A stretch of 64,000 nt of DNA, taken from contig DASCOT010000236.1 in NCBI GenBank assembly GCA_036012155.1, positions 40,655-104,654 of the forward strand. Direction: 5' to 3'. A model generated the notes under the pieces. It ran no database searches, was not told the DNA's origin, and saw only the letters and a program-made list of their open reading frames with translations. The position numbers and the translations under genes are program-made. This DNA comes from Acidobacteriota bacterium. Lineage in GTDB: Bacteria; Acidobacteriota; UBA890; WLXD01. This document shows positions 5,131-35,966 of the stretch, in pieces (positions within the stretch are counted from its first letter, which is position 1; each line of letters starts with the position of its first letter).

Positions 5131-6045
5131 TCAGCCCACCGGCAGCGTCAATACACCTGTCAGCACGGTCACGGCGGCCCCCCCGACACGTACCGACTCG
5201 ATGTCCTCGGCAGGGCCGATCACCTCCACATTGGCCGTTCCGGGGCGTCCCATCGTGTGCCCCTGCTGGGCCGTGAATCGGGGCTTCTCAATCAGTCCAT
5301 GACACCAGCAGTACGCCGCCATCGCCCCGGTTGCAGATCCGGTGAACGGGTCTTCGTAGGTATCTGGCGGCAAGCCAAAGTGCCGCGCCGCGGTGTCGCC
5401 GGCATCGGTGAAGCCGCCGAGGCAGAACAGGTGTGGGCTGAAGAAATCCCCCTCTTCGAGGGCGGCTGCAAAAGCGGCCATATCGAGACGCGCTCGCCGG
5501 AGCGCGTCGCCGTCTCGAAGCGGCACCATGAGCATCGGCGTTCCGGTGCTCACCGTTTGTGGCGGCGGGGCGTCCTGATGGCCGTCCTCCTCGTCCAGCC
5601 CGAACAGTGGCAAGATCTCGGCGGCCGCGTAGGAGCGCAGGAACACTGGCCGGCGCTGCGTCATGGTGATCTCGGCAAGATCGTCAACGCCGCGCACGTC
5701 GACTGTGATCGGCCCGTCTCTCAATTCCAGTGTGAGGCGTGTTCCGCCCTCTTCCAACACCAAGCGTCCAGTGTCGATGAGTGCCCTGGTGGTCGCCAGC
5801 GTCGGATGGCCGGCCAGGGGAATCTCCGCCGCCGGCGTGAAATAGCGGGCGCGAAAGTCGGCGACCGCAGATCGCATCACGAACGCGGTCTCCGAGAGGT
5901 TCATCTCGAGGGCGATCGCCTGCATGATCGAGGGATCGAGGTCGTCCGCGTCGAGTACAACGGCGCACGGGTTGCCCTGCAACGGCTCGCGCGTGAACGC
6001 ATCGACCTGCAATACGGGCAGCCGACGCTGCCCTTCACGCGACAC
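5131..6045 (-). CDS. PhzF family phenazine-biosynthesis-like isomerase
   Basis: N-terminal LPVLQVDAFT...GNPCAVV and overall PhzF/DAP-epimerase-fold architecture. Confidence 0.85.
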   Translation of the reverse strand: MSREGQRRLPVLQVDAFTREPLQGNPCAVVLDADDLDPSIMQAIALEMNLSETAFVMRSAVADFRARYFTPAAEIPLAGHPTLATTRALIDTGRLVLEEGGTRLTLELRDGPITVDVRGVDDLAEITMTQRRPVFLRSYAAAEILPLFGLDEEDGHQDAPPPQTVSTGTPMLMVPLRDGDALRRARLDMAAFAAALEEGDFFSPHLFCLGGFTDAGDTAARHFGLPPDTYEDPFTGSATGAMAAYCWCHGLIEKPRFTAQQGHTMGRPGTANVEVIGPAEDIESVRVGGAAVTVLTGVLTLPVG

Positions 6046-6946
6046 GGATGTTCCCCTCGCTGATCATGACCGACGCGCCGCCAACCCGAGCGGCAACGAC
6101 CTCTCCATCCCCAAGCACCGCCTCGATATCCATGCGGCTCGGGCGCCCCATCTCGAAACCCTGTTCCACCACCCAGCGAAGCTCGCCGTCACCCTGACCA
6201 GACCGAGTCGCCAGGTACGCGGCCAGCCCTGTGGCCGCGGACCCGGTCGCCGGATCCTCATCGATACCCACACCGGGCCCGAACATGCGAGCGTGTAGGT
6301 CGGCACCCGGTTGCACGCCTTCCATGGCGAACAGAAACACCTGCGGCGCCCAGGTTCCCTCCAAGGAGCGGCGCCAGGCGCGATGATCCAACCGCGCCTG
6401 GCGCACTGCGTCGATACTGCGCAAAGGCACGAACAGAAAGGGCAGCCCGCACGAAACGGCGCCCAGGCTCAACTCATCGGCTCGTAGCTCGTCGACACTG
6501 AGACTCAGCACCGCCGCAATATCGGGCAACGATATGGAGACCGATCGCTCCTCGGGCGGCTGCGCCGCCGTGAGCTGCGCGAACTCCGGCATGCCATCGG
6601 TGCAGCGAACGTGGACCGGTACCGGGCCGACACCCTCCTCCAGTACCAGCGTGACCTCGGCCTTCGGCGCCGCAATCTCTCCCAACGCGGTGAGCGCGAA
6701 GGCCGTACCGACCGTCGGGTGACCGGCGAAAGGTAGCTCGGTCCGTGGTGTGAAGATGCGCACTTTGCGGGTGTTGGCAGGGTCGTCAGGCGGCAACACG
6801 AACACCGTCTCCGACAGGTTGAACTCGCGCGCGATGCGCTGCATCGTCCGTCCATCGAGGCCCCTGGCATCGGGTAAGACAGCGAGCGGATTGCCACCGA
6901 AGGCAGTGTCTGTAAAGACATCGAGAGTAACGAAGCGATAGTTCAT
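6035..6946 (-). CDS. PhzF family isomerase (second tandem paralogue)
   Basis: [27 protein letters not shown]...; 11-nt overlap with downstream paralogue. Confidence 0.85.
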
Positions 6947-6949
6947 GGC

Positions 6950-7429
6950 TCAGGCGTCGCTGCCGACCCGAAGCACCATCGAGATAGCGCTTGCCGGGCA
7001 AAGGGAACTGTACTCAATGGACTGGAGAATGGCGGCCGGCGCTTGCTCTCGAGGAGCCGCACGAAATCCGAACCTGGGAAAGAAAGCCGCGGCGGTTTCG
7101 GTAAGCAGATAGACGTCGCGGACCCGCCGCGACCGCGCCGCCTCCAGGGCCCGGTGCACCAAAGCCTCGCCGACACCTAGCCCTCGATGCGAAGCGGCGA
7201 CCGCCACCGATCGCAGCACCGCGTCCGGCTCCTGAAGCTCTAGCGCCGCCACCCCAGCCACCGCCTCCCCTGCGCAGGCGATGAAGGCCTCGGGCCAACA
7301 GTCGTCCAGCCCCTCGACCGGCAACTCGCTGGCGCGTAACAGCTCGACCATGGCTTCCCGGTCATGATGCCGCGCCTGCCTGATCCGCACACCGTCCACC
7401 ACGGCCTCCTCTGGAGCGTGCTGCTCCAT
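6950..7429 (-). CDS. GNAT family N-acetyltransferase
   Basis: Acetyl-CoA binding motif region (HRGLGVGEALVHRALEAAR); likely start at MEQHAPEE; upstream of the two phzF genes with a 4-nt gap. Confidence 0.7.
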   Translation of the reverse strand: MEQHAPEEAVVDGVRIRQARHHDREAMVELLRASELPVEGLDDCWPEAFIACAGEAVAGVAALELQEPDAVLRSVAVAASHRGLGVGEALVHRALEAARSRRVRDVYLLTETAAAFFPRFGFRAAPREQAPAAILQSIEYSSLCPASAISMVLRVGSDA

Positions 7430-7557
7430 GACAATGTAGCGTCGCGGGCGTAGCGGCGCACGCGTCGCACTCGGCCCCTCCTGACGCTTCCATTCCTTGG
7501 GTTGACCACTCCGCCGTGGGATTTGCGGCGACAGGCCCTCCGCCTGACAATCGAGCC

Positions 7558-7794
7558 ATGTCTGAGTGGATCGAGATCGCATTGCAGCGGAGCACCATTG
7601 TGCGCGGCCTCAAGTTCGCCGCTGTAGTGGGAGTGGTGCTTGTCGCCATCAACCACGGCGAAGCCATCGTCGCGGGAAACATCGACGGCAAGCGCCTGTT
7701 GAGGATGGCCCTCACCGTTGCCGTGCCGTACCTGGTGTCGACCTTCTCAACCTGCGGAGCCAAGCTAGAAGCGCGGCGCCATCAGGGCCAGTAA
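7558..7794 (+). CDS. NrtS-like small membrane protein (putative nitrate/nitrite transporter NrtS family)
   Basis: MSEWIEIALQRSTIVRGLKFAAVVGVVLVAINHGEAI...VPYLVSTF matches recalled NrtS family pattern. Confidence 0.5.
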   Translation: MSEWIEIALQRSTIVRGLKFAAVVGVVLVAINHGEAIVAGNIDGKRLLRMALTVAVPYLVSTFSTCGAKLEARRHQGQ

Positions 7795-7912: not shown

Positions 7913-9076
7913 ATGAGTGTGATCGAGCCCCGTACATCTGCGCTTACGCCAGCGCTCGGTGAAGCTCGCTGGCGCGCCATGGTCGGGGCCGTCGACGTCT
8001 GTTTCGGTGTTGGCGAAAGGGCTCGCCTGCCGTCGATAGTCAGTGAGCTCGGCGCCCGTCGTCCGCTCATCATCACCGACCCCGGCGTGCGGGCGACGGG
8101 CCTCATCGACGAGCTCGGCGACGCGTTGACACAACTCGGGTGCGCTTGTGCCGTCTTCGATGGTGTCGAGGCGAATCCGAGCACGGCGTGCGTCGAGTCT
8201 GGCGTGACGGCTGCCCGACGGCACGAGATCGACCTGCTTATCGGGTTCGGTGGGGGAAGTCCCATGGATACGGCGAAGGGAGTCAACTTCGTATACAGCA
8301 ACGGCGGCTGTATGGAGGACTATGAGGGAACAGGGAAGGCGCATGCTGAGATGCTGCCGTCGATCGGCGTGCCGACCACCGCCGGAACCGGCAGCGAGGC
8401 GCAATCGTACGCGCTGATCTCGCGGCTGGACGACCATCGAAAGATGGCATGCGGCGATCCGGGAGCCCGTTTTCGAGCCACCGTTCTCGATCCTGGCGTC
8501 ACCGGAACGGTCCCTCGCGACGTACGGGTTGCCACCGGTATCGACGCCATCTCGCATGCCGTCGAAAGCCTTGTCAGCACGCGAGCCAACCCGATCTCGC
8601 GACTCTATAGCCGTGAGGCGTGGCACCTGCTATCGGAGGGCTTCGAGCCGGCGGTGAGCGCACCGGACGAGCTCGAGGCACGGGGCCAGATGCTGCTCGG
8701 CGCGCACCTGGCGGGGGCGGCAATCGAGCGTTCCATGCTCGGCGCCGCACACGCCTGCGCCAACCCGTTGACCGCCCGCTTCGACATCACCCACGGCATC
8801 GCCGTCGGGATCATGCTGCCGCACGTGGTGCGCTACAACCTGGCGAGTGATGCGGCCGCTGCCGAGTACGATGTGCTCGAGGTCAACGACCTTCCCGGAC
8901 TCCTCACCGCAATGCAGGAAAGCAGCGGCGTGGCACTACGGCTTCGCGCCCACGGCGTGCCGCAGGCGAGCCTCGGCAAGCTCGCGGAGGAGGCTGCACA
9001 ACAATGGACCGCCAACTACAACCCGCGTCCGGTGGACGCCCCCGAGCTGTTGAGCATCTATGAGTCGGCATACTGA
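7913..9076 (+). CDS. Iron-containing (group III) alcohol dehydrogenase
   Basis: GGGSPMDTAKG NAD-binding motif and Fe-ADH His-rich region (HAVESL...HACANPL...HG). Confidence 0.85.
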   Translation: MSVIEPRTSALTPALGEARWRAMVGAVDVCFGVGERARLPSIVSELGARRPLIITDPGVRATGLIDELGDALTQLGCACAVFDGVEANPSTACVESGVTAARRHEIDLLIGFGGGSPMDTAKGVNFVYSNGGCMEDYEGTGKAHAEMLPSIGVPTTAGTGSEAQSYALISRLDDHRKMACGDPGARFRATVLDPGVTGTVPRDVRVATGIDAISHAVESLVSTRANPISRLYSREAWHLLSEGFEPAVSAPDELEARGQMLLGAHLAGAAIERSMLGAAHACANPLTARFDITHGIAVGIMLPHVVRYNLASDAAAAEYDVLEVNDLPGLLTAMQESSGVALRLRAHGVPQASLGKLAEEAAQQWTANYNPRPVDAPELLSIYESAY

Positions 9077-10202
9077 GTCCATGAATCGCGCCCGACGCCG
9101 GCGCACGATCAGCTGGATTGCCTGCGCCTGTAGCGTCGTGATGGCGAGCGGCATCGCGCACGGCCGGGCCGACGACGCGTGGCGTGTATTCCGCGGCAAC
9201 GCCGAGCTCACGGGCACGGCCAATATCGAGATTCCGTCGGCGCCGGAGCCACGATGGGTCTTCTCGGCCGAGGACAGCATCGAGTCGAGCGCCGCGATTG
9301 CCGATGGCCGGGTCTTCGTGGGCTCACTCGATGGCCGTTTGTACGCACTGGATCTCGACAGCGGCGCCGAGCTGTGGCGCTTCGAGACCGACATCGAGAT
9401 CCGATCGTCGCCTTCAGTCTTCGGCGACACCGTCTACTTCGGCGATGAATCGGGAACGTTCCACGCGCTCGATGTCGAGAGCGGCGCCGAGCGGTGGTCG
9501 TACCAGACGGGTGGTGGAATCGTCTCGGCAGCAAACTACGCGGACGGGCTGCTGATCTTCGGTTCGTACGACAACCACCTGTACGCTGTGGCGGCCACAG
9601 ACGGCACGCTGGTCTGGAGCATCGAGACCGGCGGCTACGTGAACGGGACACCGGCGATCGTCGGCGACACGGTGATCTCGGTCGGATGCGACGGTGTGCT
9701 GCGGCTCGTGTCATTGCGCGACGGCGCGTTGCTCGGCAGCATCGAGATCGGTGCATACGTCGCCGCGAGCCCGGCAATTAGCCAGGGCGTAGCCTATTTC
9801 GGCACCTATGAGAACCAGGTTCTCGCAGTGAGCCTGGCGGGCGAGCGACGCTGGGCCTACGAGCACCCGAAGCGCAAGTTTCCGTACTATTCATCGGCAG
9901 CGATTACGGATGGCGTGCTGGTGGTCGGCGGGCGCGACAAGATGGTGCACGGGATCGATCCGGCTACGGGAGGGCCACTCTGGACCCACACGAGCGGAGC
10001 GCGCGTCGACTCCTCGCCCGTCATCGTCGGTGATCGGGTCTTTGTAGGCGGAAGCTCCGGCGACCTGGTGGCGCTCGACGTGCGGTCGGGCGAGGTCTTG
10101 TGGCAATTCGAGACCGGGTCGTCGATCGTCGCGTCACCAAGCTTGGCCTCGGGGCGCCTCATAATCGGAACAGAGGACGGCGACCTCTACTGCTTCGGGT
10201 GA
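9060..10202 (+). CDS. Secreted PQQ-repeat (BamB-like) beta-propeller protein
   Basis: Signal peptide then repeated 'DG-LYALD---G-ELWRF-T' PQQ-type blades. Confidence 0.75.
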   Translation: MSRHTESMNRARRRRTISWIACACSVVMASGIAHGRADDAWRVFRGNAELTGTANIEIPSAPEPRWVFSAEDSIESSAAIADGRVFVGSLDGRLYALDLDSGAELWRFETDIEIRSSPSVFGDTVYFGDESGTFHALDVESGAERWSYQTGGGIVSAANYADGLLIFGSYDNHLYAVAATDGTLVWSIETGGYVNGTPAIVGDTVISVGCDGVLRLVSLRDGALLGSIEIGAYVAASPAISQGVAYFGTYENQVLAVSLAGERRWAYEHPKRKFPYYSSAAITDGVLVVGGRDKMVHGIDPATGGPLWTHTSGARVDSSPVIVGDRVFVGGSSGDLVALDVRSGEVLWQFETGSSIVASPSLASGRLIIGTEDGDLYCFG

Positions 10203-10207
10203 GATCG

Positions 10208-11581
10208 ATGGGCCAGGAAGCTCTGCCTGAGACCGACTCTTCGCCCGAGTTCCACGCCGAGCCGGCGACATCCCGGGCACAGCGAGAGGCGACCGACGTC
10301 GGCAGTGTCTTCGTGTCCAACTATCCGCCGTTCTCACAGTGGACGGCCGATCAATTGCCGGCGTACCGGAAGGCACTAGATACTCCTGCCTCCGGCGACG
10401 CCCCGCCCCTGGGGCTGTATCTGCATATCCCGTTCTGCCGCAAGCGCTGTAAGTTCTGCTATTTCCGTGTCTATACGGACAAGAACGCTGATGAGGTCGA
10501 GGTTTACTGCGATGCGATCGCCCAAGAGATCGATCGCTACGCCGGCGCCGCGGCGATCGCCGGACGCCCCTTACGGTTCGTGTACTTCGGCGGCGGAACC
10601 CCGTCCTACGTTGCCGCGAAGCACCTGCGAGAGCTCGTGACCCGGGTGCGGGCGTCGCTACCCTGGGACCAAGTCGACGAAGTCACCTTCGAGTGTGAGC
10701 CCGGCACCCTCAGTCGCACCAAGCTCGAGACCGTTCGCGAGCTCGGGATCACCCGGCTGAGCCTCGGCGTGGAGAACTTCAACGACGAGATTCTGCAGCT
10801 CAATGGCCGCGCTCACGTGAGCAAGGAGATCTTCCGTGTCCTGCCCTGGATTCGGGACCTGGCGTTCGATCAGCTCAACATCGACCTCATCGCCGGAATG
10901 ATCGGCGAGACTTGGGAGAGCTGGCGCGACACCGTGCAGCAGGCGATCGACACCCACCCGGACTCGGTAACCGTCTATCAGTTGGAGTTGCCCTACAACA
11001 CCCGCTTCTCGAAGCAGTTCCTGGAGGGCAGGTTAGCGGTGCCGCTGGCCGACTGGGCGCAGAAACGCGCATGGCACGACTATGCCATCGAGCAGCTGCA
11101 CGCAGCCGGATTCGAGATCTCGAGCGCCTACACCATGGTACGTGCCGACAAGCGATGCGACTTCGTCTATCGCGACGCCTTGTGGCAGGGGGCCGACATG
11201 TTGGGCACCGGCGTGTCCTCGTTCGGACATCTGAGCGGCATCCACGTGCAGAACACCGCGAGCTGGGGCGACTACCTCGAATCGGTAGACAGCGGCAGGC
11301 TGCCGCTCGAGCGCGCCTTTGTCACGAGCCCCGAGGACCGATTGATCCGCGAGACCATCTTGCAACTCAAGCGGGGAGCGCTCAGCCGGGCGCATTTCCT
11401 GGAAAAGTTCGGCGTCGATATTCTGGAGCGCTTCGCCCCGGCATGGGAGCGACTGCGGTCGCACCAGATGTTGCGCGTCAGCGACGACGGTGTCGAGCTG
11501 ACGCGGCAAGGATTGCTGCAGGCTGACGCCTTGTTGCCGGAGCTCTACGACGAGCGTTATCGCGACGCTCGGTACACGTAG
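10208..11581 (+). CDS. Radical SAM HemN/HemW/ChuW-family protein (coproporphyrinogen III oxidase-like)
   Basis: CRKRCKFC (CxxxCxxC) radical SAM cluster motif, GGGTPS, HemN-like C-terminal domain; 457 aa from ATG 10208. Confidence 0.8.
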   Translation: MGQEALPETDSSPEFHAEPATSRAQREATDVGSVFVSNYPPFSQWTADQLPAYRKALDTPASGDAPPLGLYLHIPFCRKRCKFCYFRVYTDKNADEVEVYCDAIAQEIDRYAGAAAIAGRPLRFVYFGGGTPSYVAAKHLRELVTRVRASLPWDQVDEVTFECEPGTLSRTKLETVRELGITRLSLGVENFNDEILQLNGRAHVSKEIFRVLPWIRDLAFDQLNIDLIAGMIGETWESWRDTVQQAIDTHPDSVTVYQLELPYNTRFSKQFLEGRLAVPLADWAQKRAWHDYAIEQLHAAGFEISSAYTMVRADKRCDFVYRDALWQGADMLGTGVSSFGHLSGIHVQNTASWGDYLESVDSGRLPLERAFVTSPEDRLIRETILQLKRGALSRAHFLEKFGVDILERFAPAWERLRSHQMLRVSDDGVELTRQGLLQADALLPELYDERYRDARYT

Positions 11582-11594
11582 TCGGGGCGAACCG

Positions 11595-12890
11595 ATGAGC
11601 CGCCGCGCGACCGGCAATGCCGCTGCGATGGTCATCATGCCGGTGGCCGCACTGCTGACGACTCTGACCGGCACGACGCCGCGACACCAGCCGGGTTACC
11701 TGGCCGAGGCCGCCGCGCAGAGGTCGGGCCCGGCGCACGACTGGCCCCAGTTGCGAGGTCCGAATGCCGACGGCATCTCGCCACAGACCGGCCTCCTGAC
11801 CACCTGGCCCGAGTCGGGGCCGCGCGAGATCTGGCGAGTGCCCCTCGGCAAGGGGTTTTCAGGGATCTCCGTTGTCGGCGAGCGCGCCTTCACGATGTTC
11901 GGGCGAGGCGGCACGTACCTGGGGACCTTCGATACGGCGACCGGCGACGAGTTGTGGCAGCTTCGCATCGACGAGATGTACCGCAACAGCTCGGGCGATG
12001 GGCCGCGATCCACTCCGACAGTCGACGACGGCACCGTCTACGTGATCAGCGGACGGGGGATCATCGCCGCAGTGGACGCCGAGACAGGTGCCACGAGGTG
12101 GCGGCACAATCTGCGCGAGGAGTATCGTGCGGCAGGGCCGAACTGGGGTTTCTCCGCCTCGCCCAAGGTGTACGGCAACCTAATCCTCGTCGAGGCCGGT
12201 GCGCCCGACGCAGCGTTGTTGGCGTTTGACAAGCGTACAGGCGAGGAAGTTTGGCGAGCCACGGGAGATCCGCCAGGGTATTCAACGCCACTGCTGGTGC
12301 AGATCGGCGGTCTACCACAAGCGGTCTTCTTCACCGGCCGTCGCATCGCCGGTGTGAATCCCAGTAGTGGTGCGCTCCTGTGGGATATGCCTTGGGAAAC
12401 TACATTCGGCGTCAACGCGGCAACGCCGGTCTTCGTACCGCCCGATAAGATCTTCGTTTCCTCCGGCTACGGCGTCGGCGCGGCTTTGCTTCGCGTCGTC
12501 CCGGGTAGCGCCGGCGGGGTGGAAACCGTGTGGCGCACCCGCGAGATGAAGAACCAGTTCAGCAGCTCCGTGCTGGTCGACGACTATATCTACGGCTTCG
12601 ACAACTCTATGCTGGAGTGCATCGAGTTGAGCCGGGGTGAGAGGATGTGGCGGGCACGCGGGCACGGACAAGGCTCATTGCTGTACGCAGATGATCACCT
12701 GATTGTCTTGGGTGACCGCGGCTCATTGGCGCTCGTCAAGCTCAGTCCCGGGGAGTACCTCCAGGTCTCAAGGGCGCAGGTGTTCCGCGGCCGGACTTGG
12801 ACTGCACCTACACTGGCAAACGGAGTCCTGTACCTACGCGATGAGCAGGAGCTCGTGGCTCTCGAGATCACCGAGGCGACGATTTCCTGA
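11595..12890 (+). CDS. Secreted PQQ-repeat (BamB-like) beta-propeller protein
   Basis: Signal peptide; repeated PQQ-like blades (GTVYVISGRGIIAAVDAETGATRWRH etc.). Confidence 0.75.
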   Translation: MSRRATGNAAAMVIMPVAALLTTLTGTTPRHQPGYLAEAAAQRSGPAHDWPQLRGPNADGISPQTGLLTTWPESGPREIWRVPLGKGFSGISVVGERAFTMFGRGGTYLGTFDTATGDELWQLRIDEMYRNSSGDGPRSTPTVDDGTVYVISGRGIIAAVDAETGATRWRHNLREEYRAAGPNWGFSASPKVYGNLILVEAGAPDAALLAFDKRTGEEVWRATGDPPGYSTPLLVQIGGLPQAVFFTGRRIAGVNPSSGALLWDMPWETTFGVNAATPVFVPPDKIFVSSGYGVGAALLRVVPGSAGGVETVWRTREMKNQFSSSVLVDDYIYGFDNSMLECIELSRGERMWRARGHGQGSLLYADDHLIVLGDRGSLALVKLSPGEYLQVSRAQVFRGRTWTAPTLANGVLYLRDEQELVALEITEATIS

Positions 12891-12983
12891 ACGAAACAAC
12901 CGAGAGAAAACGGCGGTGCGTTGCGCACCGTCACCGGCGAAGCTGATCCCCGACCCTGGAATCCGATCGTGCGCATCTTGAAG

Positions 12984-15095
12984 ATGACCCTGTGTGCCCT
13001 GTTCTTGGCGGTTCCGATGGCCGCTGTCGCCCAGGCCCCGTCGGCGGACGAGCCAGAGCAGCTGCTGCCGCTCCGCGCTACGGAGTTCATCTTCGTGGAG
13101 GGAAGCCTGCCGCTGGTGCCAACCGCCAATACGATCGCGTCGAAGCTCCCACTGCCGCTTCGCCTGACCCCGAACAACGTCGGCATGGTCACCGCGGCGC
13201 TCTTCGGTGAACAGCAGGCAAACGTTCTCGGCGACGCGCTGATCAACGTCAGCGGTATCAACACCCAGCCCGGGTTCGGCGGCGTCCACGATTTCTTCGT
13301 CGCGCGCGGCTTCGATTCCATCAGCAGCAGCCTGATACTCACCGACGGAGCCCCCGAGCCCGAGGCCACGTTTTACCAGCTCTACAACGTCGAGTTGGTC
13401 GAGGTTCTGAAGGGTCCCGGCGGTTTTCTGTACGGCAGCAACCCGTTGGCCGGGACGGTGAACCTGGTACGCAAGCAGCCGTTTGCCAACAGCGGGCTCC
13501 GTATCAGCACATCGGGAGGCAGCTTCTCGACCTTCGACGGTACGATCGACGCCAACCATGGCACCGCCGATGGGCGCGTCGCGTTCCGCGTCAACGCCCT
13601 GGTGCGTGGTTCCTCCGGGTACCGCGACAATCGTGATAGCAACGCGACGGCGGTCAACCCGGCGCTGACCTGGCAGCTGGCAGATGGGCACTCGCTCAAC
13701 GCCAACTTCGAGTACGCCCGCGCCGACTTCAGCCCCGAGGCCGGAATCCCTCTGCTGTTCAACGAAGCACCGCCCGTACGGCTGGAGAACGACTACAACG
13801 CCGCCAGCGACCGGTCGGAGCAGAATGTCTACCGCTTCCAGCTCGACTACGAAGGTCGTCTCAGCGATAGCGTGCGGATCCGCAACAAGCTCTACTACCG
13901 TGGCCTCGACTGGCTGTCGGACGGCACCTTGCTGGTCGGCGCCTTTCCCGAGGTCTCGCCGGCGTTCGTGCCCACCGGCCGAACGATCGTGGCGCGCTCG
14001 CAGATCCAGCTCGACGATCAGCAGTCGCTGTTGGGTAACCAGTTCGAAGCTATCTTCGACTTCGATACCGGCGACGTGCACCACAGCCTGCTGACCGGCA
14101 TCGAGACCTCGCGCTACGCCGACGAGTTCGCGCTCGATGCTTTCCTGCTCGCCTCGGTAGACCTGTTCGAACCGGTTGAGCCGGGCTCGATGCCGATTCC
14201 CCTGGGAAGCCAGGGCGCTGGAGATGCACGCAGCATCGTGATCGCTCCCTGCGCGATCGACCAGATCACCTTCGCGGACCGGCTGCAAGTTCTCGCTGGC
14301 GCCCGCCTCGACAACATCGATTTTGACGATCAGCGAACCGGACGGTCGAGCAACAGCAGCAAGCTGTCGCCGATGCTTGGAGCAGCGTGGGCAGCGAACG
14401 ATGAGGTATCGATCTACGGCAACTACTCGCGCTCCTATGCGCCGCCGTCACCGCGGGCCTTCGAGGATCTCGTACCCGAAGAAAGCGAACAGGTGGAGCT
14501 TGGCATCAAGCTACGCATCCTCGACGGTCGCGCGCAGGCGACCGCCGCAGTCTATCGCCTAGTCCGCGACAATATCGCGATTCCCGACGACAACGGGTTC
14601 ACACAGCAGATCGGCAATCAGCGCTCGTCGGGCTTCGAGCTCGAACTCGCCGCCGAGCCAGGACGCGGCTTCCGCGGCGTCGTATCGTACGCGTACAACG
14701 ACGCCGAGCTGACAGAGTTCGCCGAGCGTATTACTGGTTTTAGTCCGTTCGGTGTGCCCTTCGAACAAACGCTGGACCACTCGGGCAACCGCCCGGCATT
14801 CGCTCCCGAGCACCTGCTCAACGTCTGGGTCAGCAAGACTCTCGATAGTGGGCTCGGGATCAGCCTCGGCGCCCGCTACATCGGCAACCAGTTCATCGCC
14901 GAAGACAATGCCTTCAACATCGACGAGGCGCTCATCGTCTCGGGCGCGCTGGCCTACGACTGGTCGCGCTACCGGATCAGCGTCAACGTGCAGAACCTCG
15001 CCGACTCAGCCTATTTCGTTCGTGGCTTTGGATCTCAATCGATCACGCCGGGGACCCCGGTAGCTGCGACCCTGCGTCTTGGCTACGAGTTTTGA
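12984..15095 (+). CDS. TonB-dependent outer-membrane receptor
   Basis: Signal peptide, plug domain (GV...VARGF, LKGPGGFLYGSNPLAGTVNLV), long beta-barrel, C-terminal aromatic residue; ORF 12921..15095 with likely start MTLCALFLAV. Confidence 0.85.
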   Translation: MTLCALFLAVPMAAVAQAPSADEPEQLLPLRATEFIFVEGSLPLVPTANTIASKLPLPLRLTPNNVGMVTAALFGEQQANVLGDALINVSGINTQPGFGGVHDFFVARGFDSISSSLILTDGAPEPEATFYQLYNVELVEVLKGPGGFLYGSNPLAGTVNLVRKQPFANSGLRISTSGGSFSTFDGTIDANHGTADGRVAFRVNALVRGSSGYRDNRDSNATAVNPALTWQLADGHSLNANFEYARADFSPEAGIPLLFNEAPPVRLENDYNAASDRSEQNVYRFQLDYEGRLSDSVRIRNKLYYRGLDWLSDGTLLVGAFPEVSPAFVPTGRTIVARSQIQLDDQQSLLGNQFEAIFDFDTGDVHHSLLTGIETSRYADEFALDAFLLASVDLFEPVEPGSMPIPLGSQGAGDARSIVIAPCAIDQITFADRLQVLAGARLDNIDFDDQRTGRSSNSSKLSPMLGAAWAANDEVSIYGNYSRSYAPPSPRAFEDLVPEESEQVELGIKLRILDGRAQATAAVYRLVRDNIAIPDDNGFTQQIGNQRSSGFELELAAEPGRGFRGVVSYAYNDAELTEFAERITGFSPFGVPFEQTLDHSGNRPAFAPEHLLNVWVSKTLDSGLGISLGARYIGNQFIAEDNAFNIDEALIVSGALAYDWSRYRISVNVQNLADSAYFVRGFGSQSITPGTPVAATLRLGYEF

Positions 15096-16369
15096 TGTCT
15101 CCCAAGGCTGATGCCTACGACGTCATCGTCGTTGGTGGTGGCCCGGCAGGTTCGACAACTGCAACGTTGACGGCGGACGGTGGGCGCCGCGTGTTGCTAC
15201 TCGAGCGCGAGCAGTTCCCCCGTTTTCGCATCGGCGAATCGCTCATGCCGGCCACGTACTGGACGCTCGAGCGCCTCGGAGTACTGGAGCAAATGAAGCG
15301 CAGCTACTTCCCCCATAAGCACTCGGTGCAGTTCTTCGCCAGGAGCGGTCGCGCATCGGTGCCCTTCTACTTCTCCGAGACGGAGCCGGGGCCGAGTGCC
15401 CAGACCTGGCAAGTGGACCGTAGCGACTTCGACCAGATGCTGTTGAACAACGCCCGTGAGCACGGCGTGGAAGTGCACGAGCGAGCTCGCGTCACGGATG
15501 TGTTGTTCGACGGCGCGCGCGCCCGTGGTGTCGAGGCGCGCTTCGCTGACGGATCGACCCATCGCCTCGATGCCACCGTTGTGGTCGACGCCACCGGACA
15601 ATCCGCCCTGCTGGCCAAGCGCCTCAAGCTCCGGCAGGTGGATACGAACCTGATGAACTGCTCTTTCTTCACGCGCTACAGAGGTGGATGGCGCGGCGAG
15701 GGCGTTGACGAAGGCGCCACCCTGATCTTCTACACGAGCCAGCCGCGCACGTGGTTCTGGTACATCCCGCTGCCGGACGGGGTTGTCAGCGCCGGCGTCG
15801 TGGGACCGATCGAACGACTCACCAAGGGCCGCGCTAACACCCCGCAGCAGGTCTACGATGAGGAGGCTGCCGATTGTCCGGCGCTCCTGGAGAGAATCGC
15901 CGGCGCCGAGCAACTGCACGACGTACGAGTTCTCAAGGATTTCTCATACGCTAGCCATCGGGTAGCAGGAGACGGCTGGCTGCTGGTCGGCGACGCCTTC
16001 GGCTTCATCGATCCGATCTACTCCTCGGGGGTGTTCCTGGCACTCAAAGGTGCCGAGTTCGCCGCCGAGTCGATCCTCGACGCGTTCAATCACGAGGACA
16101 TCTCGGCCGAACGGCTCGGGCAACACGGCAAGGAGTTCCTTCAGGGCGTCGAAGCGATGCGCAAGCTCGTCTACGCCTACTACTCGGAAGAGTTCAGCTT
16201 CCCGGAGTTCCTGGAGCATTACCCCGACATGAAGGACGACCTGGTGAACCTGTTCATCGGCAACGTATACAGAAAAAATGTCGGCCGACTGCTAGAGTCG
16301 ATGGAGGAATTCTGCGCGTTGCCGGCGTATGAGCCCTTCACACTTCAGGAAACTACCAGCGACCGTTAG
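15092..16369 (+). CDS. FAD-dependent oxidoreductase, flavin-dependent halogenase-like (tryptophan-halogenase family)
   Basis: GGGPAGS dinucleotide-binding motif, GDAFGFIDPIYSSGV, and WFWYIP (WxWxIP) halogenase hallmark; 4-nt overlap with TBDR gene. Confidence 0.75.
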   Translation: MMSPKADAYDVIVVGGGPAGSTTATLTADGGRRVLLLEREQFPRFRIGESLMPATYWTLERLGVLEQMKRSYFPHKHSVQFFARSGRASVPFYFSETEPGPSAQTWQVDRSDFDQMLLNNAREHGVEVHERARVTDVLFDGARARGVEARFADGSTHRLDATVVVDATGQSALLAKRLKLRQVDTNLMNCSFFTRYRGGWRGEGVDEGATLIFYTSQPRTWFWYIPLPDGVVSAGVVGPIERLTKGRANTPQQVYDEEAADCPALLERIAGAEQLHDVRVLKDFSYASHRVAGDGWLLVGDAFGFIDPIYSSGVFLALKGAEFAAESILDAFNHEDISAERLGQHGKEFLQGVEAMRKLVYAYYSEEFSFPEFLEHYPDMKDDLVNLFIGNVYRKNVGRLLESMEEFCALPAYEPFTLQETTSDR

Positions 16370-16419
16370 GGCCACCCGGAGCAACAAGCGCCAAAGCCAT
16401 TGAGAAACGGTCCGACGAG

Positions 16420-16647
16420 GTGCGCATGAGTGGCAACCGCTTGAAACTGTACGGCCTCCTGGTGCTCCTCTATGTGCTCCACACAGATTGGTGGCTCTGG
16501 AGTGACGGTCGTGTCCGGTTCGGGCTCCCCATGGGGCTGCTGTACCACCTTGCCTACATGTTGGCGACAGCGGTGGTGATGTACATGCTCGTCAAGCAAG
16601 CATGGCCAAGCCACCTCGAAATCGATGATGCCGGAGACGATCGATGA
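16420..16647 (+). CDS. DUF3311-like small membrane protein (SSS-symporter-associated)
   Basis: 75-aa two-TM protein immediately upstream of and overlapping an SSS symporter, the typical DUF3311/SSS pairing. Confidence 0.5.
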   Translation: MRMSGNRLKLYGLLVLLYVLHTDWWLWSDGRVRFGLPMGLLYHLAYMLATAVVMYMLVKQAWPSHLEIDDAGDDR

Positions 16648-18113
16648 CACTGGCCATCATCGCTGCCTACATGGTGGTCGTGCTGTCGATCGGAGCCTTC
16701 AGCCACCGTCTGTTCCAACGTACCGGCGAGGACTACTTCCTCGCCACGCGAAGCATTGGTCCGTTTGTTCTGCTGATGTCGCTGTTCGGGACCAATATGA
16801 CGGCATTCGCCCTGCTCGGAGCGTCCGGCGAGGCTTACCATGCGGGAATCGGCGTGTTCGGCTTCATGCCGGCGATATCCGGCCTGGTGATCCCGGCGAT
16901 CTTCTTCTTCATCGGCACGCGTGCTTGGGCGATCGGCAAGCGCCACGGCTACGTCACCCAGGTGCAATTCTTTCGCGACCGTTGGGAATCGGATGCCCTC
17001 GGCCTGCTGCTGTTCGTGGTGCTGGTCGGTCTGGTCATCCCCTACCTGCTCATTGGCGTGATGGCAGGCGGGGTGACGCTCAACCAGGTGACCGGAGGCG
17101 ACGTTCCCGAGTGGGTCGGCGGGCTGGTCATCTGTATCGTCGTGCTGAGCTACGTGACCTTCGGGGGCCTGCGTGGAACCGCTTGGGTAAACACCTTTCA
17201 GACCATCGTCTTCATGATCCTCGGCGCCGCCACCGTCCTCGTCGTATTTCGCAACATGGGTGGCCTTGGCGTGGTGATGAGCAGGATCGGCGCCGAGGCA
17301 CCAGAGCTGTTGGTACGCGAAGGCAACTTCTCGCCGATACGCTGGCTCACCTACTCGTTGATCCCCCTCTCGCCGGCAATGTTCCCGCACATGTTCATGC
17401 ACTGGCTGAGCGCCAAGCGCTTGGAGAACTTCCGGCTCACGGTGATGGTGTACCCACTCTGCATCGCGGCAGTTTGGCTGCCACCGGTGTTGCTCGGAAT
17501 CGCCGGCAGGCTCGACTTTCCGGGCCTGGTCGGTGGGCAATCGAACTCCATCCTCGTGCGGATGATCACCATGCACGCACCGGGGGTCCTCGCTGGGCTC
17601 CTCGCTGCCGGCGTGTTCGCCGCGGTGATGTCGTCGCTCGACTCGCAGGTGTTGTCGCTGGGGACGATGTTCACCGAGGACATCGTGCGCCACTACGGCC
17701 ATGCCGACGGCCTCACGGATCGGCAGCAGATCCTCTCCGGCCGGTTGTTCGTGGCAGGAATCCTGGCGTTTACCTACACGCTGTTCTTGTTCTCGAACCG
17801 GAGCATCTTCGACCTGGCGACATGGTCGTTCACCGGTTTCGCGGCGTTGGCACCGATCGCGGTCAGCGCGCTGTTTTGGCGGCGCAGCACCAAACAGGGC
17901 GCCACCGCCTGCGTTGGCACGGTAGTGGTCCTGTGGAGCTACTTCTTCTACCAGGGATGGGGCGACCGGACCTACACCGTCGGCGGAAGCGGTGTCATGG
18001 CCGTGGCGGTCATTCTGGCGGCATCCAGCGTGGCGATGGTGGTCGTATCTTTGCTGACCAAGCCTCCCGACGATGAGCACGTCAACCGCTTCATCGCGCC
18101 ACCGGCCGGCTAG
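16644..18113 (+). CDS. Sodium:solute symporter (SSS) family transporter
   Basis: 489-aa polytopic membrane protein with SSS family features (DYFLATRSIGPF..., GG-GTAWVNTFQ). Confidence 0.85.
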   Translation: MTLAIIAAYMVVVLSIGAFSHRLFQRTGEDYFLATRSIGPFVLLMSLFGTNMTAFALLGASGEAYHAGIGVFGFMPAISGLVIPAIFFFIGTRAWAIGKRHGYVTQVQFFRDRWESDALGLLLFVVLVGLVIPYLLIGVMAGGVTLNQVTGGDVPEWVGGLVICIVVLSYVTFGGLRGTAWVNTFQTIVFMILGAATVLVVFRNMGGLGVVMSRIGAEAPELLVREGNFSPIRWLTYSLIPLSPAMFPHMFMHWLSAKRLENFRLTVMVYPLCIAAVWLPPVLLGIAGRLDFPGLVGGQSNSILVRMITMHAPGVLAGLLAAGVFAAVMSSLDSQVLSLGTMFTEDIVRHYGHADGLTDRQQILSGRLFVAGILAFTYTLFLFSNRSIFDLATWSFTGFAALAPIAVSALFWRRSTKQGATACVGTVVVLWSYFFYQGWGDRTYTVGGSGVMAVAVILAASSVAMVVVSLLTKPPDDEHVNRFIAPPAG

Positions 18114-18140
18114 CCGATCGTGTACCGCGCGGCACACTAG

Positions 18141-19439
18141 ATGCGGATCGCCTACATAACGGCCGGCGCGGCAGGGATGTACTGCGGCAGCTGTCTGCAT
18201 GACAACACGTTGGCGGCGGCGTTGCAGAAGGACGGACACGAGGCCGCGCTGGTCCCCATGTACACCCCCATCCGTACCGACGAGGACGACGTGAGTATCG
18301 ACCGCGTCTTCTATGGTGCGGTCAACGTATACTTGGAGCAGCGCTGGAAGTTCTTCCGGCACAGCCCCGCCATCCTGCACTGGCTACTCGATCGACCGGC
18401 CCTGCTCAGAAACGTCTCGCGCCTGGCGGGATCAAGCGCCACCCAGGGTAAAGAGCTCGGGGCACTGGCCTTGTCGGTGCTACGCGGCGAAGACGGCCGT
18501 CAGCGAAGCGAGCTCGAACGTCTGGTCGCGTGGCTACGCGATGACTTCAAGCCGCAGATCGTTCACATTACCAACGCTTTGTTGCTGGGCTTGGCGCGGA
18601 CGCTCAAGCGCGAGCTTCAGGTGCCAGTGCTATGCGGCGTGCAGGGGGAGGACCTCTTCATCGACGAGATGGTGGAGCCTTACAGGACGCGTTTCGTAGC
18701 GGAGCTGCGAACGCACGCCATCGATGTCGACGGGTTTCTGGCACCGAATCGCTACTACGCCGACCATGTGCGGAGCTACCTGGCGACGTCAGCCGAGAAA
18801 ATTCGCGTAGTGCCCCTGGGGATCACCCTGCCGGGGCACGAGATGCGGATTCGGTCTGCCGACGAGCCGTACACGATCGGCTTCCTTGCCAGGCTCTGTC
18901 CGGAAAAAGGACTGCATCGGCTGGTTTCGGCCTTCAGCCAGTTGGCGGGACGCGAGACACACCCAGACGTGCGCTTGCGTGTTGCCGGGTACATGGCTGC
19001 GCGCGACGCCGCGTACGTCGACGAGCAGCAACGTCTTATAGCCGACTGGGGGCTGGCCGACCGTGTCGATTGGATCGGCGAGGTCGATCGCGATGCCAAG
19101 ATGCGATTCCTGAGCTCGATCGACGTGCTGTGCCTTCCGACAGTCTACCGAGAGTCGAAGGGGTTGCCCGTGCTGGAGGCAATGGCCAGCGCCGTGCCGG
19201 TGATCGTACCGGCACACGGCAGTTTTCCGGAGTTGATCGAATGGACCGGCGGCGGGGTACTGGTGGATCCGGAGGGGAATGAGGCGCTGGTAGATGCGCT
19301 CAGCGCGTTGATGCGCGATCCTGAGCGAGGCCAGGAGCTCGGCCGGACTGGCCGCCAGGCAGTCCACCGTGAGTTCTCGGCCGAGGCCATGGCTGCAGCA
19401 ACGCTGCGCGAGTACGAGCGCTGGGTATGCACGAGCTGA
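18141..19439 (+). CDS. Glycosyltransferase family 4
   Basis: C-terminal GT4 core (ESKGLPVLEAMASAVPVIVPAHGSFPELIE) with the conserved E-x7-E region. Confidence 0.8.
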   Translation: MRIAYITAGAAGMYCGSCLHDNTLAAALQKDGHEAALVPMYTPIRTDEDDVSIDRVFYGAVNVYLEQRWKFFRHSPAILHWLLDRPALLRNVSRLAGSSATQGKELGALALSVLRGEDGRQRSELERLVAWLRDDFKPQIVHITNALLLGLARTLKRELQVPVLCGVQGEDLFIDEMVEPYRTRFVAELRTHAIDVDGFLAPNRYYADHVRSYLATSAEKIRVVPLGITLPGHEMRIRSADEPYTIGFLARLCPEKGLHRLVSAFSQLAGRETHPDVRLRVAGYMAARDAAYVDEQQRLIADWGLADRVDWIGEVDRDAKMRFLSSIDVLCLPTVYRESKGLPVLEAMASAVPVIVPAHGSFPELIEWTGGGVLVDPEGNEALVDALSALMRDPERGQELGRTGRQAVHREFSAEAMAAATLREYERWVCTS

Positions 19440-19846
19440 CGATTCAACGAAAAGTCGAGTTCTCAGACACCGACATGGCCGGTATCGTGCATTTCTCTCG
19501 GCTGATCGTGTTCATGGAGAATGCCGAGCACGCCTTCATCGAGGCCCTCGGTGCGAGCGTCCACATGGACCACGACGGCATTCGTCTCGGCTGGCCGCGG
19601 GTCGCAGTCGAGGCACAGTTCAAGTCGCCGGCGCGCTTCAACGACGTGGTCGACATCCACCTGCGCGTGCTGAGCAAGAAGAGCAAGGCAATAACGTACG
19701 GGTTCTCGATTCGCGTTGGCGAGCGTCTCGTCGGCACGGGCTCGATGACCTCGGTGTGCTGCGCAATGGAGGAATCGGGTCCACGGGCCATCGAGATCCC
19801 GGCGTTCATTGCGGATCAAATCCAGGAAGCCGGGAGCATCGAATAG
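19427..19846 (+). CDS. Hotdog-fold acyl-CoA thioesterase (4HBT/YbgC-like)
   Basis: 139-aa protein, EFSDTDMAGIVHFSRL N-terminal catalytic region typical of 4HBT thioesterases; overlaps GT4 stop. Confidence 0.7.
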   Translation: MHELTIQRKVEFSDTDMAGIVHFSRLIVFMENAEHAFIEALGASVHMDHDGIRLGWPRVAVEAQFKSPARFNDVVDIHLRVLSKKSKAITYGFSIRVGERLVGTGSMTSVCCAMEESGPRAIEIPAFIADQIQEAGSIE

Positions 19847-19884
19847 AAGTCCACCAGCCCGGCACGAGGGTACGGAGAGGTCGG

Positions 19885-20553
19885 TTGGACCTGCAGGTCG
19901 CACACGTCGCAAAGGAGTTCGAGATCGCTGGCACGGCCGTGCCAGTGCTCGAAGACGTGTCGTTCGACGTCGCGGCCGGGAGCTCGATCGCGATCATGGG
20001 CCCGTCCGGCTCGGGCAAGAGCACGGTGCTGCACATCATCGGCACGCTCGAGCCACCGACTGACGGCGATGTGAGGATCGGCAGCCACGACCCGTTTGCG
20101 CTGAGCGAGCCGGCGATGGCGCGCTTCCGCAACGAATCAATCGGCTTCGTGTTTCAAGATCATCACCTGCTACCACAGTACAGCGTGCTCGAGAACACGC
20201 TGATCCCGACGCTGGCGTTCTCCGGCAAGCCCGCAGGCGAGGAGCGCGCTCGGCAACTGCTGGAGCGCGTCGGGCTGGCGCACCGGCTCGATCATCGACC
20301 GGCGCAGCTGTCGGGTGGGGAGCGTCAGCGGGTAGCGATTGCCCGAGCGCTGATCAACCGACCAGCGCTGCTGCTATGCGATGAGCCCACCGGAAATCTC
20401 GATCATCGAACCGCCGACGCGGCAGCGGAATTGTTGCTCGAACTGCACGAGCAGGAATCCAACGTTCTGGTAGTGGTCACCCATAGCGCGGAGCTGGCGC
20501 AACGCTTCGGACGCCGGCTGGAGTTGCGGGAAGGTCGATGCTACGAGGCCTGA
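19885..20553 (+). CDS. ABC transporter ATP-binding protein (LolD/MacB-type)
   Basis: Walker A GPSGSGKST, signature LSGGERQRVAIARAL, Walker B LLLCDEPTGNLD; probable TTG start at 19885. Confidence 0.85.
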   Translation: MDLQVAHVAKEFEIAGTAVPVLEDVSFDVAAGSSIAIMGPSGSGKSTVLHIIGTLEPPTDGDVRIGSHDPFALSEPAMARFRNESIGFVFQDHHLLPQYSVLENTLIPTLAFSGKPAGEERARQLLERVGLAHRLDHRPAQLSGGERQRVAIARALINRPALLLCDEPTGNLDHRTADAAAELLLELHEQESNVLVVVTHSAELAQRFGRRLELREGRCYEA

Positions 20554-31327: not shown

Positions 31328-31371
31328 GGCTATATAGAATGCTAGATTGAAACCTAGGATCCTATATAGCC
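31328..31371. promoter_or_regulatory. Perfect 10-bp inverted repeat GGCTATATAG-N24-CTATATAGCC in AT-rich patch; candidate PadR operator/promoter
   Basis: Read directly; 31 nt upstream of padR start; contains TAGAAT/TATATA -10-like hexamers. Confidence 0.45.
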
Positions 31372-31401
31372 GTAGACAAGGTCATCGAGGAACACCGACC
31401 C

Positions 31402-31719
31402 ATGAAGATCATGTTCACCTATCCCACGGCGATGGCCCTTGCAGCCATCTCCCATGGCCATCGCTACGGCTTCGACATCATGGACGCCACCGGACTTCCG
31501 GACGGCACCGTGTACCCGATCCTGCGGCGCCTGGAGACACGAGGATTCCTTGTGGGGCTCTGGGAGGACGAGGAAGCAGCCTACGGCGACGGCAGGCCGC
31601 CACGACGCTACTACGAGCTCACCGCAGCGGGTCTGGAGGCACTGAGCGCGGCGCTGCAACGGTTCCCGCGCGTCGTCGAGCTATTCCCTGGCGCCGCCAA
31701 GCACCGCGCCACGATCTGA
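31402..31719 (+). CDS. PadR family transcriptional regulator
   Basis: 105 aa winged-helix PadR with the YPILRRLE recognition-helix motif. Confidence 0.85.
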
Positions 31720-31730
31720 GGAGATCGCCC

Positions 31731-35883: not shown

Positions 35884-35966
35884 CCGTTGTTGCCAGAGAC
35901 GCCGGCAGCGGTGCGCGCCGAAGACACCAGCCGTTGCTGGGAGCAGGTTGACTGTATCATCGTGCA

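Follow-up and report, generated by a model that had tools for sequence, protein, structure and literature searches.

Few functions are known for HemN-like proteins, namely heme synthesis, heme chaperoning, heme degradation and the transfer of one-carbon (C1) units in antibiotics, and these proteins are almost always annotated as "coproporphyrinogen oxidase". The subject of the present analysis is a HemN-like radical S-adenosylmethionine (SAM) enzyme of 457 aa, predicted to be cytoplasmic, encoded at positions 10208-11581 (+) of a 64,000 nucleotide stretch of an Acidobacteriota bacterium (assembly GCA_036012155.1, contig DASCOT010000236.1, positions 40,655 to 104,654 of the forward strand), hereafter called the window. 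The gene lies between two genes coding for secreted beta-propellers of the pyrroloquinoline quinone (PQQ)-like or BamB-like type, a pairing which belongs to no characterised system, as had already been stated by a previous reading of the DNA letters (the sequence-only reading). By its sequence, the protein represents a separate, ancient HemN-like subfamily, which is neither HemN, HemW nor ChuW; overall, it is a new subfamily found within an uncharacterised, but already noticed, type of gene cluster.

In natural products, alkenes or aromatic sp2 carbons receive a C1 unit derived from SAM through the known HemN-like enzymes not involved in heme metabolism, aromatic sp2 carbons being the typical substrates of the class C natural-product enzymes (PMC10114718). 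These methylases and cyclopropanases (NosN/NocN, TbtI, C10P/YtkT, Jaw5, the coelulatin enzyme) resemble the enzyme described here in being HemN-like, in lacking the fourth Cys of HemN and in being encoded in clusters with tailoring enzymes. They differ from it in that NocN can be matched to the radical SAM core only, no thiopeptide, polyketide synthase (PKS) or benzodipyrrole genes are found at this locus, and no known natural-product methylase comes near the subfamily in conservation and spread.

In the literature, searches for this combination of genes yielded a single report, a 2026 preprint on sponge microbiomes, where "Halo_AMP" candidate biosynthetic clusters are described from Acidobacteriota, Latescibacterota and Poribacteria, phyla shared with the operon analyzed here; these clusters combine a halogenase, a PCL-type AMP-binding enzyme, a PQQ-like domain, a radical SAM protein, a TonB receptor, a glycosyltransferase and a thioesterase (Loureiro et al., bioRxiv 10.64898/2026.08.03.742642). 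According to the same authors, a PQQ-like domain is almost unknown in biosynthetic clusters, the radical SAM proteins cluster with nothing characterised, no product is assigned, and PCL-type ligases co-occur also in the yatakemycin cluster, as they do in clusters related to the present one (10.64898/2026.08.03.742642). The Halo_AMP class is defined by a halogenase together with an AMP-binding enzyme; the window contains the former and not the latter, and for this reason its cluster is missed by the rule. The orthologous clusters of Latescibacterota and Poribacteria do contain both, a PaaK/FlxY-like, PCL-like aryl-CoA ligase (labelled f4) being found in 29 of the 56 related loci described below. 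A further difference is that the core formed by an iron-containing alcohol dehydrogenase (Fe-ADH), a propeller and the HemN-like enzyme is also found in Planctomycetota, without a halogenase, and in metagenome-assembled genomes (MAGs) not derived from sponges. Beyond the preprint, the present analysis therefore adds that the radical SAM protein forms a HemN-like subfamily of its own, that the propeller and the Fe-ADH, rather than the halogenase or the ligase, are the partners constantly found with it, that the core reaches Planctomycetota and non-sponge genomes, and that heme-related functions are unlikely.

For the family assignment, the curated cut-offs of NCBIfam were used as tests, with E. 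coli K-12 (hemN, hemW) and O157 Sakai (chuW) as sources of the reference genes. The protein scores 198.2 bits with HutW/ChuW (TIGR04107, cut-off 400), nominally its top NCBIfam match, 185.8 bits with HemN (TIGR00538, cut-off 324.95), 159.8 bits with HemW (TIGR00539, cut-off 205.4), 180 bits with STM4012 (cut-off 380) and 153 bits with HemZ (cut-off 321), and thus remains below every one of them; the scores also lie close to one another. Identity is between 27 and 28% with each of E. coli HemN (28%), HemW and ChuW (27%), about the same distance as that found among these three proteins. Twenty homologues of the enzyme form one tight clade, apart from HemN, HemW and ChuW.

The sequence-only reading had assigned the protein to the HemN family, and this assignment holds in the sense of a full-length HemN-fold radical SAM enzyme. 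Pfam recognises the Radical_SAM (85 bits) and HemN_C (30 bits) domains, and an AlphaFold model, built on the 20 homologues, was aligned by Foldseek to HemN (PDB 1OLT) with a template modelling (TM) score of 0.74-0.78 over 425 columns. In a profile search of the PDB, HemN was matched with 168 bits along residues 48-437, and NocN (9p2u) with 124 bits along residues 49-267, corresponding to the core only. The motif C77-x3-C81-x2-C84 and the GGGTPS sequence are invariant in the 20 homologues, as are the segments GSVFVSNYPP and CRKRCKFCYF, and an R-Y-T at the C-terminus. The residues binding the first SAM in E. coli HemN are also retained, at the positions equivalent to Y56, H58, F68, R184 and D209. 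The enzyme is thus intact and HemN-fold, and stands outside the named families.

The alignment with E. coli HemN also reveals two differences. The fourth Cys of HemN (C71, in CxxxCxxCxC) is replaced by Phe (CRKRCKFCYF), as in ChuW, and the RNFQGY sequence is without a counterpart; both features are missing in HemW, ChuW and the class C methylases as well. At the other end of the comparison, the enzyme carries a conserved 65-residue N-terminal extension, where the VFVSNYPP segment parallels the RYTSYPT of HemN in its Ser-x-Tyr-Pro element; such an extension is not present in E. coli HemW, whose family is about 380 aa long. By this comparison, the subfamily appears as a mosaic, with a HemN-like N-terminal extension and a full HemN-like C-terminal half, and without the fourth Cys and RNFQGY.

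Over 8000 database proteins match the enzyme, with about 60% identity between phyla, and a scan of one genome per species found the subfamily in at least 594 species. The best 80 of these loci come from MAGs of Acidobacteriota, Poribacteria, Latescibacterota and Planctomycetota; KSB1 and "Deferribacteres" MAGs are also among the matches of the protein search. The nearest relatives of the window are Acidobacteriota MAGs, 79-85% identical. In order to compare neighbourhoods, genes were called by a greedy procedure in 84 loci and matched to the window proteins and to each other; counts are given over the 56 loci with full flanks of 10 kb. The propeller encoded upstream of the enzyme (propeller 1) is found within 10 kb of the radical SAM gene in 54 of them, and the Fe-ADH in 48, in every case as the gene immediately before propeller 1. 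On one strand, Fe-ADH, propeller 1 and the radical SAM enzyme follow one another in a fixed order, which occurs in Acidobacteriota, Poribacteria, Latescibacterota, Planctomycetota and KSB1. Propeller 1 adjoins the radical SAM gene in 68 out of 75 loci, and its stop codon lies a median of 92 nt (65 loci) ahead of the enzyme's conserved N-terminal motif, which leaves essentially no intergenic space. Since the gene order recurs across phyla, and propeller 1 is nearby in nearly all loci, the arrangement is far beyond chance. The gene tree of the enzyme largely follows the phyla, and the family therefore looks old, rather than recently spread. The sequence-only reading had named, as signs against itself, a clustering with housekeeping HemN/HemW and the absence of the same neighbourhood from related genomes; neither was found, the protein falling into a clade of its own and the neighbourhood being conserved in near as well as distant relatives.

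The other partners are less constant. The halogenase is found in 41 of the 56 loci, an aldehyde dehydrogenase (ALDH)-family protein in 31, the second propeller type in 28, an EhpF-like adenylating enzyme in 24, the TonB-dependent receptor in 23, a GT4 glycosyltransferase also in 23, always together with a thioesterase-ABC-FtsX block, and a sodium:solute symporter (SSF) in 20; in Poribacteria, the place of the latter is taken by a TAXI-TRAP transporter (13 loci; TAXI model, 238 bits). Planctomycetota keep only Fe-ADH, propeller 1 and the radical SAM enzyme, with or without the EhpF-like and ALDH-like proteins, and have no halogenase.

In some Planctomycetota loci (L076, positions 6263-7760, and also L077, L080, L082 and L083), the radical SAM gene is followed by genes for a protein similar to glycine-cleavage H, of the lipoyl-carrier type, and for a 4Fe-4S ferredoxin-domain protein, at the position taken elsewhere by the halogenase/transporter block. 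The ferredoxin-domain protein could be the electron donor for the enzyme.

A large branch, of thousands of sequences from at least four phyla, including dominant sponge symbionts and soil Acidobacteriota, thus fits no known HemN-like function and is tied to one operon with a secreted propeller. Solving its reaction would add a new chemistry or substrate class to the HemN-like family and correct a widespread misannotation. It might also reveal what is produced by a halogenase cluster which ranks with the most conserved ones of sponge-associated bacteria, many brominated metabolites of sponges still being without an assigned source.

Reading of the open reading frames (ORFs) and of their junctions bore out the coordinates of the three-gene arrangement given by the sequence-only reading. 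Propeller 1 (9060-10202, +; Pfam PQQ_2 and Beta-prop_ACSF4) ends with a TGA, 5 nt before the ATG of the radical SAM gene at 10208; the latter ends with a TAG at 11581, and 13 nt separate it from the ATG of propeller 2 (11595-12890, +; PQQ_2, 145 bits, and Beta-prop_ACSF4). The trio is however not a free-standing unit, being located in the middle of an operon of 12 genes, all on the + strand, from 7913 to 23981 (about 16 kb); junctions are overlapping or no longer than 55 nt, except for about 93 nt before the receptor gene. The first gene codes for the Fe-ADH, an iron-containing (group III) alcohol dehydrogenase (7913-9076; Pfam Fe-ADH, 150 bits, and ADH_Fe_C, 108 bits), and its stop overlaps the start of propeller 1 by 17 nt; the protein remains below every NCBIfam equivalog cut-off, the best being ErcA (240 out of 550). 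Directly after propeller 2, as previously noticed, comes a TonB-dependent receptor, probably of the siderophore type (12984-15095, with a probable ATG at 12984 in an ORF opening at 12921; Pfam Plug and TonB_dep_Rec_b-barrel). A flavin-dependent halogenase of the "variant B" or phenol-pyrrole type follows (15095-16369; Pfam Trp_halogenase, 97 bits), its ATG overlapping the TGA of the receptor by one base (TGATG).

The rest of the operon contains a small membrane subunit (16426-16647), recognised by Pfam DUF3311 on its orthologues in the related loci L001, L002, L003 and L006, whose gene overlaps by 4 nt the start of the SSF importer (16644-18113; 126 bits); a GT4 glycosyltransferase (18141-19439; Glycos_transf_1, 111 bits); a 4HBT-fold, YbgC/FadM-like acyl/aryl-CoA thioesterase (19427-19846; 4HBT_2 on orthologues); an ABC transporter ATPase (19885-20553; ABC_tran on orthologues); and, as the final gene, an FtsX/MacB-type ABC permease of 1147 aa (20538-23981; FtsX on orthologues, with weak LolCE similarity).

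By every sequence criterion, the flavoprotein would be classified as a flavin-dependent halogenase. Its nearest matches in the PDB are all halogenases (8zop, 225 bits; CndH, 193; Bmp2, 192; PltA, 180; CmlS was also matched). Of 54 orthologues, at least 97% keep the GxGxxG motif (G14/G16/G19), K75 at the position of the catalytic Lys and the WxWxIP motif (W220-x-W222-x-I224-P225). The flavoprotein also resembles, more weakly, the protein-Trp hydroxylases QhpG (147 bits), LodB and GoxB.

Several of the partner enzymes found in related loci resemble proteins of aromatic small-molecule chemistry. The ligase of Latescibacterota and Poribacteria is similar to PaaK, to the flexirubin ligase FlxY and to BagE/FevW, and some loci add chorismate-lyase-like and benzoylformate-decarboxylase-like genes; in the window, the thioesterase has a 4-hydroxybenzoyl-CoA-thioesterase fold. 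The EhpF/EhpG pair is thought to reduce an aromatic carboxylate. In the related loci, a 366-aa adenylating enzyme, homologous to EhpF (159 bits to PDB 3l2k), is encoded upstream of an ALDH-family gene, the two being found in 24 and 31 of the 56 loci respectively, with an alcohol dehydrogenase next to them; the layout resembles that of phenazine clusters such as the one for D-alanylgriseoluteic acid in Pantoea, where ehpF is followed by the ALDH-family ehpG (PMC11278526). Together with the Fe-ADH, the pair suggests a conversion from acid to aldehyde to alcohol on an aromatic ring. The window differs in lacking the pair, the operon has no phzA-G core genes, and the two PhzF-like genes found upstream are on the other strand and confined to close relatives. 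No AMP-binding enzyme was found in the 64-kb window, both adenylating enzymes (the aryl-CoA ligase and the EhpF-like protein) and the ALDH being absent from it.

In Poribacteria, small conserved ORFs of the clusters were considered as acyl or peptidyl carrier proteins (ACP/PCP) and rejected, being toxin-antitoxin components. Pairs of a PIN-like toxin and a small antitoxin, from several families, separate the halogenase from the radical SAM gene or from the ligase in L019-L025, L041 and L049; insertions of this kind are likewise reported in the sponge preprint (10.64898/2026.08.03.742642).

Both propellers of the window carry N-terminal signal sequences, with no clear lipobox, and nearly all propeller 1 orthologues show a Sec-type signal peptide followed by a conserved W.FRG. 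The AlphaFold 2 model of propeller 1 is a very regular eight-bladed structure, with a predicted local distance difference test (pLDDT) score of about 90 in the mature domain (about 340 aa, eight minimal blades). Its best Foldseek matches are the designed "Cake8" proteins and BamB (TM 0.76-0.9, identity 20-33%). For the propeller as for the enzyme, the predicted structures confirmed the fold and offered no hint of function other than BamB and HemN. Almost all of the conserved positions are structural Gly, Trp and Asp; those departing from the repeat pattern are E75, C210, R292 and D293, of which C210, conserved in at least 95% of the orthologues, belongs to a turn with the sequence GCD, the corresponding residue of the other blades being Ser, Asp, Thr or Gly. 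Propeller 2 shares 27% identity with propeller 1 (BLASTP, E = 1e-6), is present in 0-3 copies in related loci and tends to adjoin the receptor. BamB (YfgL) has the same eight-bladed fold as propeller 1 (TM about 0.76-0.84, identity 20-24%) and is also extracytoplasmic; it is however a lipoprotein of the BAM complex, whereas propeller 1 orthologues are mostly not lipoproteins and have their genes in a metabolic operon, where a cluster may contain as many as five paralogues. A genuine BamB was rejected for both proteins, propeller 1 scoring 152.8 against 285.2 and 110 against 423 with the BamB models (TIGR03300, PRK11138), and propeller 2 62.9 against 285.2. The same holds for a PQQ-dependent dehydrogenase (TIGR03075, about 550-600 aa), where propeller 1 scores 90.3 against 480 and propeller 2 reaches 36 bits. 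The propellers, the radical SAM enzyme, the alcohol dehydrogenase and the halogenase are all without a c-type heme motif (CxxCH). The propellers could bind or process a metabolite in the periplasm or assist the receptor, and propeller 1 could be a client of the enzyme.

Variant clusters, found in L005 and in the Poribacteria loci L012 and L013, add to the PQQ-like propellers other secreted ones, similar to LDL-receptor class B/SGL, Kelch and Vgb-lyase proteins, for up to five or six propeller genes per locus; some have sulfatases nearby (L005, 11411-12688 and 14578-15825; L012/L013, 5535-6233 and 18555-19586).

The partner enzymes point to a small aromatic acid as substrate, rather than to a tetrapyrrole. 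The preferred reading, to which a probability of roughly 0.45 is given, is that the operon tailors and transports a small aromatic metabolite, derived from an aryl carboxylate and probably halogenated, and that the HemN-like enzyme carries out on it a C1 transfer or an oxidative decarboxylation. What the substrate is, which reaction takes place, in which direction the pathway runs (biosynthesis with re-uptake, or salvage) and what the propellers do are all inferred in this way. An aromatic acid would be made in the cytoplasm or imported, by way of the TonB-dependent receptor at the outer membrane and of SSF and DUF3311 here, or of TAXI-TRAP in Poribacteria. It would be handled as an adenylate or CoA thioester, by the PCL/FlxY-like ligases in relatives and with the 4HBT thioesterase here, and would be halogenated by the flavin-dependent halogenase. 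The HemN-like enzyme may then modify a carbon, either by a class-C-type transfer of a SAM-derived C1 unit to an sp2 carbon, or by a HemN-type oxidative decarboxylation of a carboxyalkyl side chain. The acid group would be converted to an alcohol by the EhpF/EhpG-like pair in relatives and by the Fe-ADH here; in Acidobacteriota and Latescibacterota, the product would be glycosylated by the GT4 enzyme and exported by the ABC/FtsX transporter, and the secreted BamB-like propellers may bind the compound, or act on it, in the periplasm.

A number of observations weigh against this scheme. None of the members has a known product, substrate or activity, and the argument for an aromatic acid leans partly on relatives, because the window operon has neither an aryl-CoA ligase nor the EhpF/EhpG pair. 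"Variant B" halogenases usually act on tethered substrates, and no carrier protein, PKS, nonribosomal peptide synthetase (NRPS) or precursor peptide was found in the cluster. Halogenation also lies outside the ancestral core, because the core of Planctomycetota has no halogenase. An identity of 55-60% across phyla, together with synteny, is unusual for secondary-metabolite clusters and would better fit a physiological role, such as that of a cofactor or envelope component; salvage or catabolism is a more usual setting than biosynthesis for importers (SSF, TRAP, TonB-dependent receptor); and the near-obligate secreted propeller is left without a defined role.

Salvage or catabolism of an exogenous aromatic acid, in which the receptor and the propellers capture the compound, SSF or TRAP imports it and the cytoplasmic enzymes (alcohol dehydrogenase, ALDH, CoA ligases, thioesterase, flavoenzyme and radical SAM enzyme) convert it, the GT4-ABC/FtsX genes being an unrelated neighbour, is rather unlikely. 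The exchange of unrelated importers, SSF with DUF3311 and TAXI-TRAP, at the same position suggests selection for carboxylate import, the receptor gene is translationally coupled to that of the flavoenzyme, and aromatic catabolism typically involves CoA ligases, alcohol and aldehyde dehydrogenases and an enzyme like benzoylformate decarboxylase; Sphingobium is known to take up aromatic acids from lignin in a TonB-dependent manner. The flavoenzyme retains, however, all of the halogenase-specific motifs, and halogenation has no place in catabolism. Moreover, the glycosyltransferase, thioesterase, ABC and FtsX genes are co-conserved with the cluster in two phyla, and no ring-cleavage or ring-reduction genes were seen in the related loci examined.

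The constancy of propeller 1, which accompanies the enzyme more regularly than the halogenase or any transporter does, and with a tight junction, would be explained if the radical SAM enzyme served the propeller, either by modifying its unfolded precursor before Sec export or by making a small cofactor, exported to the propeller and bound by it. Precedents are anSME for sulfatases and QhpD for QhpC, as far as precursor modification is concerned, and PQQ for quinoproteins, as a cofactor. The signal peptide shared by nearly all propeller 1 orthologues and the conserved C210 agree with such a role, as do the ability of HemN-like enzymes to act on peptides (TbtI, NosN; PMC10114718) and the weak similarity of the flavoenzyme to QhpG, LodB and GoxB. 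The fold of propeller 1 is on the other hand that of a regular scaffold, like BamB and the designed proteins, with no insertions to form a cofactor pocket, its conserved residues are almost all structural, and in the Planctomycetota loci L068, L077 and L084 the enzyme is found without a nearby propeller. To our knowledge, there is also no precedent for a HemN-like enzyme modifying the precursor of a folded protein. This role for the enzyme is on the whole improbable, and so, to the same degree, is the wider proposal that propeller 1 and the HemN-like enzyme form an undescribed two-compartment system, in which the propeller is turned into a periplasmic catalyst or high-affinity binder, and halogenase, ligases and transporters are lineage-specific additions. 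If true, a service to the propeller would be a new way of equipping periplasmic proteins.

That the protein is a housekeeping tetrapyrrole enzyme, i.e. a decarboxylase of coproporphyrinogen or coproheme working without oxygen, or a heme chaperone of the HemW type, located in the operon by historical accident, is unlikely. The full-length HemN architecture, including the VFVSNYPP segment, and the very high conservation across phyla are as expected for such an enzyme. In its favour is also that several of these phyla rely on the coproporphyrin-dependent heme pathway, for which we know of no oxygen-independent decarboxylase of this kind. The scores are however under the HemN, HemW and HemZ cut-offs, the fourth Cys, essential in HemN, and RNFQGY are missing, and the gene is always in the same non-heme operon, no heme-synthesis genes being found beside it in the 84 loci.

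The sequence-only reading had also connected the adjacent receptor with ChuW/HutW-type anaerobic heme degradation. The best model for the receptor is that of the TonB-siderophore receptors (TIGR01783), with 213.6 bits against a cut-off of 223.5 over the full model length, and Fiu gives 156 bits; heme-receptor models TIGR01785 and TIGR01786 give 78.3 against 316.85 and 47.1 against 323.75, respectively. The E. coli chu locus was used as positive control for the heme-system tests. The search for FRAP and NPNL boxes, which the sequence-only reading had suggested, was carried out under strict and relaxed conditions and found none in the window receptor, which is 24% identical to ChuA; in the latter, used as control, FRAP is found at 434 and NPNL at 462. 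A phmmer search for ChuS, ChuT, ChuX, ChuY and ChuU homologues in the window and in the 84 related loci gave only generic ABC ATPase and TonB-receptor matches. The heme-degrading methyltransferase, suggested by the HemN-like fold, the nominally top HutW score, the Phe at the fourth Cys and a TonB-dependent receptor two genes downstream in the same operon, is refuted as far as sequence can refute it, since that score is half of its cut-off and nearly equalled by HemN and STM4012, ChuW is no closer in identity than HemN or HemW are, the receptor is nearer to the siderophore type, without heme boxes and missing from more than half of the clusters, and the chu/hut partners are lacking.

On both sides of the operon, the genes are on the opposite strand. 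Downstream, they code for a pyridoxal phosphate (PLP)-dependent decarboxylase, Ada and a glutaminyl cyclase. Upstream, two tandem PhzF-like genes (5131-6045 and 6035-6946, -; 203 and 218 bits) are followed by a GNAT acetyltransferase (6950-7582, -); the PhzF-like genes are of interest because related clusters hold the EhpF/EhpG-like, phenazine-tailoring pair. The same layout, with a tryptophan 2,3-dioxygenase and a kynureninase-like gene further out, is found in the close relatives L001 and L002, and not in other phyla.

Just upstream of the Fe-ADH, a small hydrophobic membrane protein of 78 aa is encoded at 7558-7794 (+), whose membership in the operon is uncertain. It looks NrtS-like by eye only, without a Pfam match, and a homologue upstream of Fe-ADH is found, among the related loci, in L002 only. 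A role as precursor of a peptide made by ribosomes and modified after translation (RiPP) was considered and rejected, the protein being hydrophobic and conserved only in L002. A mycofactocin-like RiPP system, suggested by small ORFs upstream of Fe-ADH in L001, L002 and L005, was also rejected, the operon leaving no internal stretch unassigned.

Where propeller 2 and the receptor gene are set apart, by the one larger spacer within the operon, lies a perfect 7 bp hairpin (12914-12930; CGGTGCG nnn CGCACCG). Terminator-like sites around it are no commoner than in shuffled sequence, and scans for Rfam families, tRNAs, promoters and terminators gave nothing above chance.

Two further features of the window were noticed. 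In the GT4 glycosyltransferase, an unusual CGSC motif is present near the N-terminus (MYCGSCLHDN), and is the same in the L001 orthologue. At a distance of 10 kb past the operon, a second MacB/FtsX-type permease pair (31347-34421, +) is followed by a third PQQ_2 propeller gene, coding for 541 aa (34432-36057, -), and propellers and FtsX permeases are thus recurrent in this genome.

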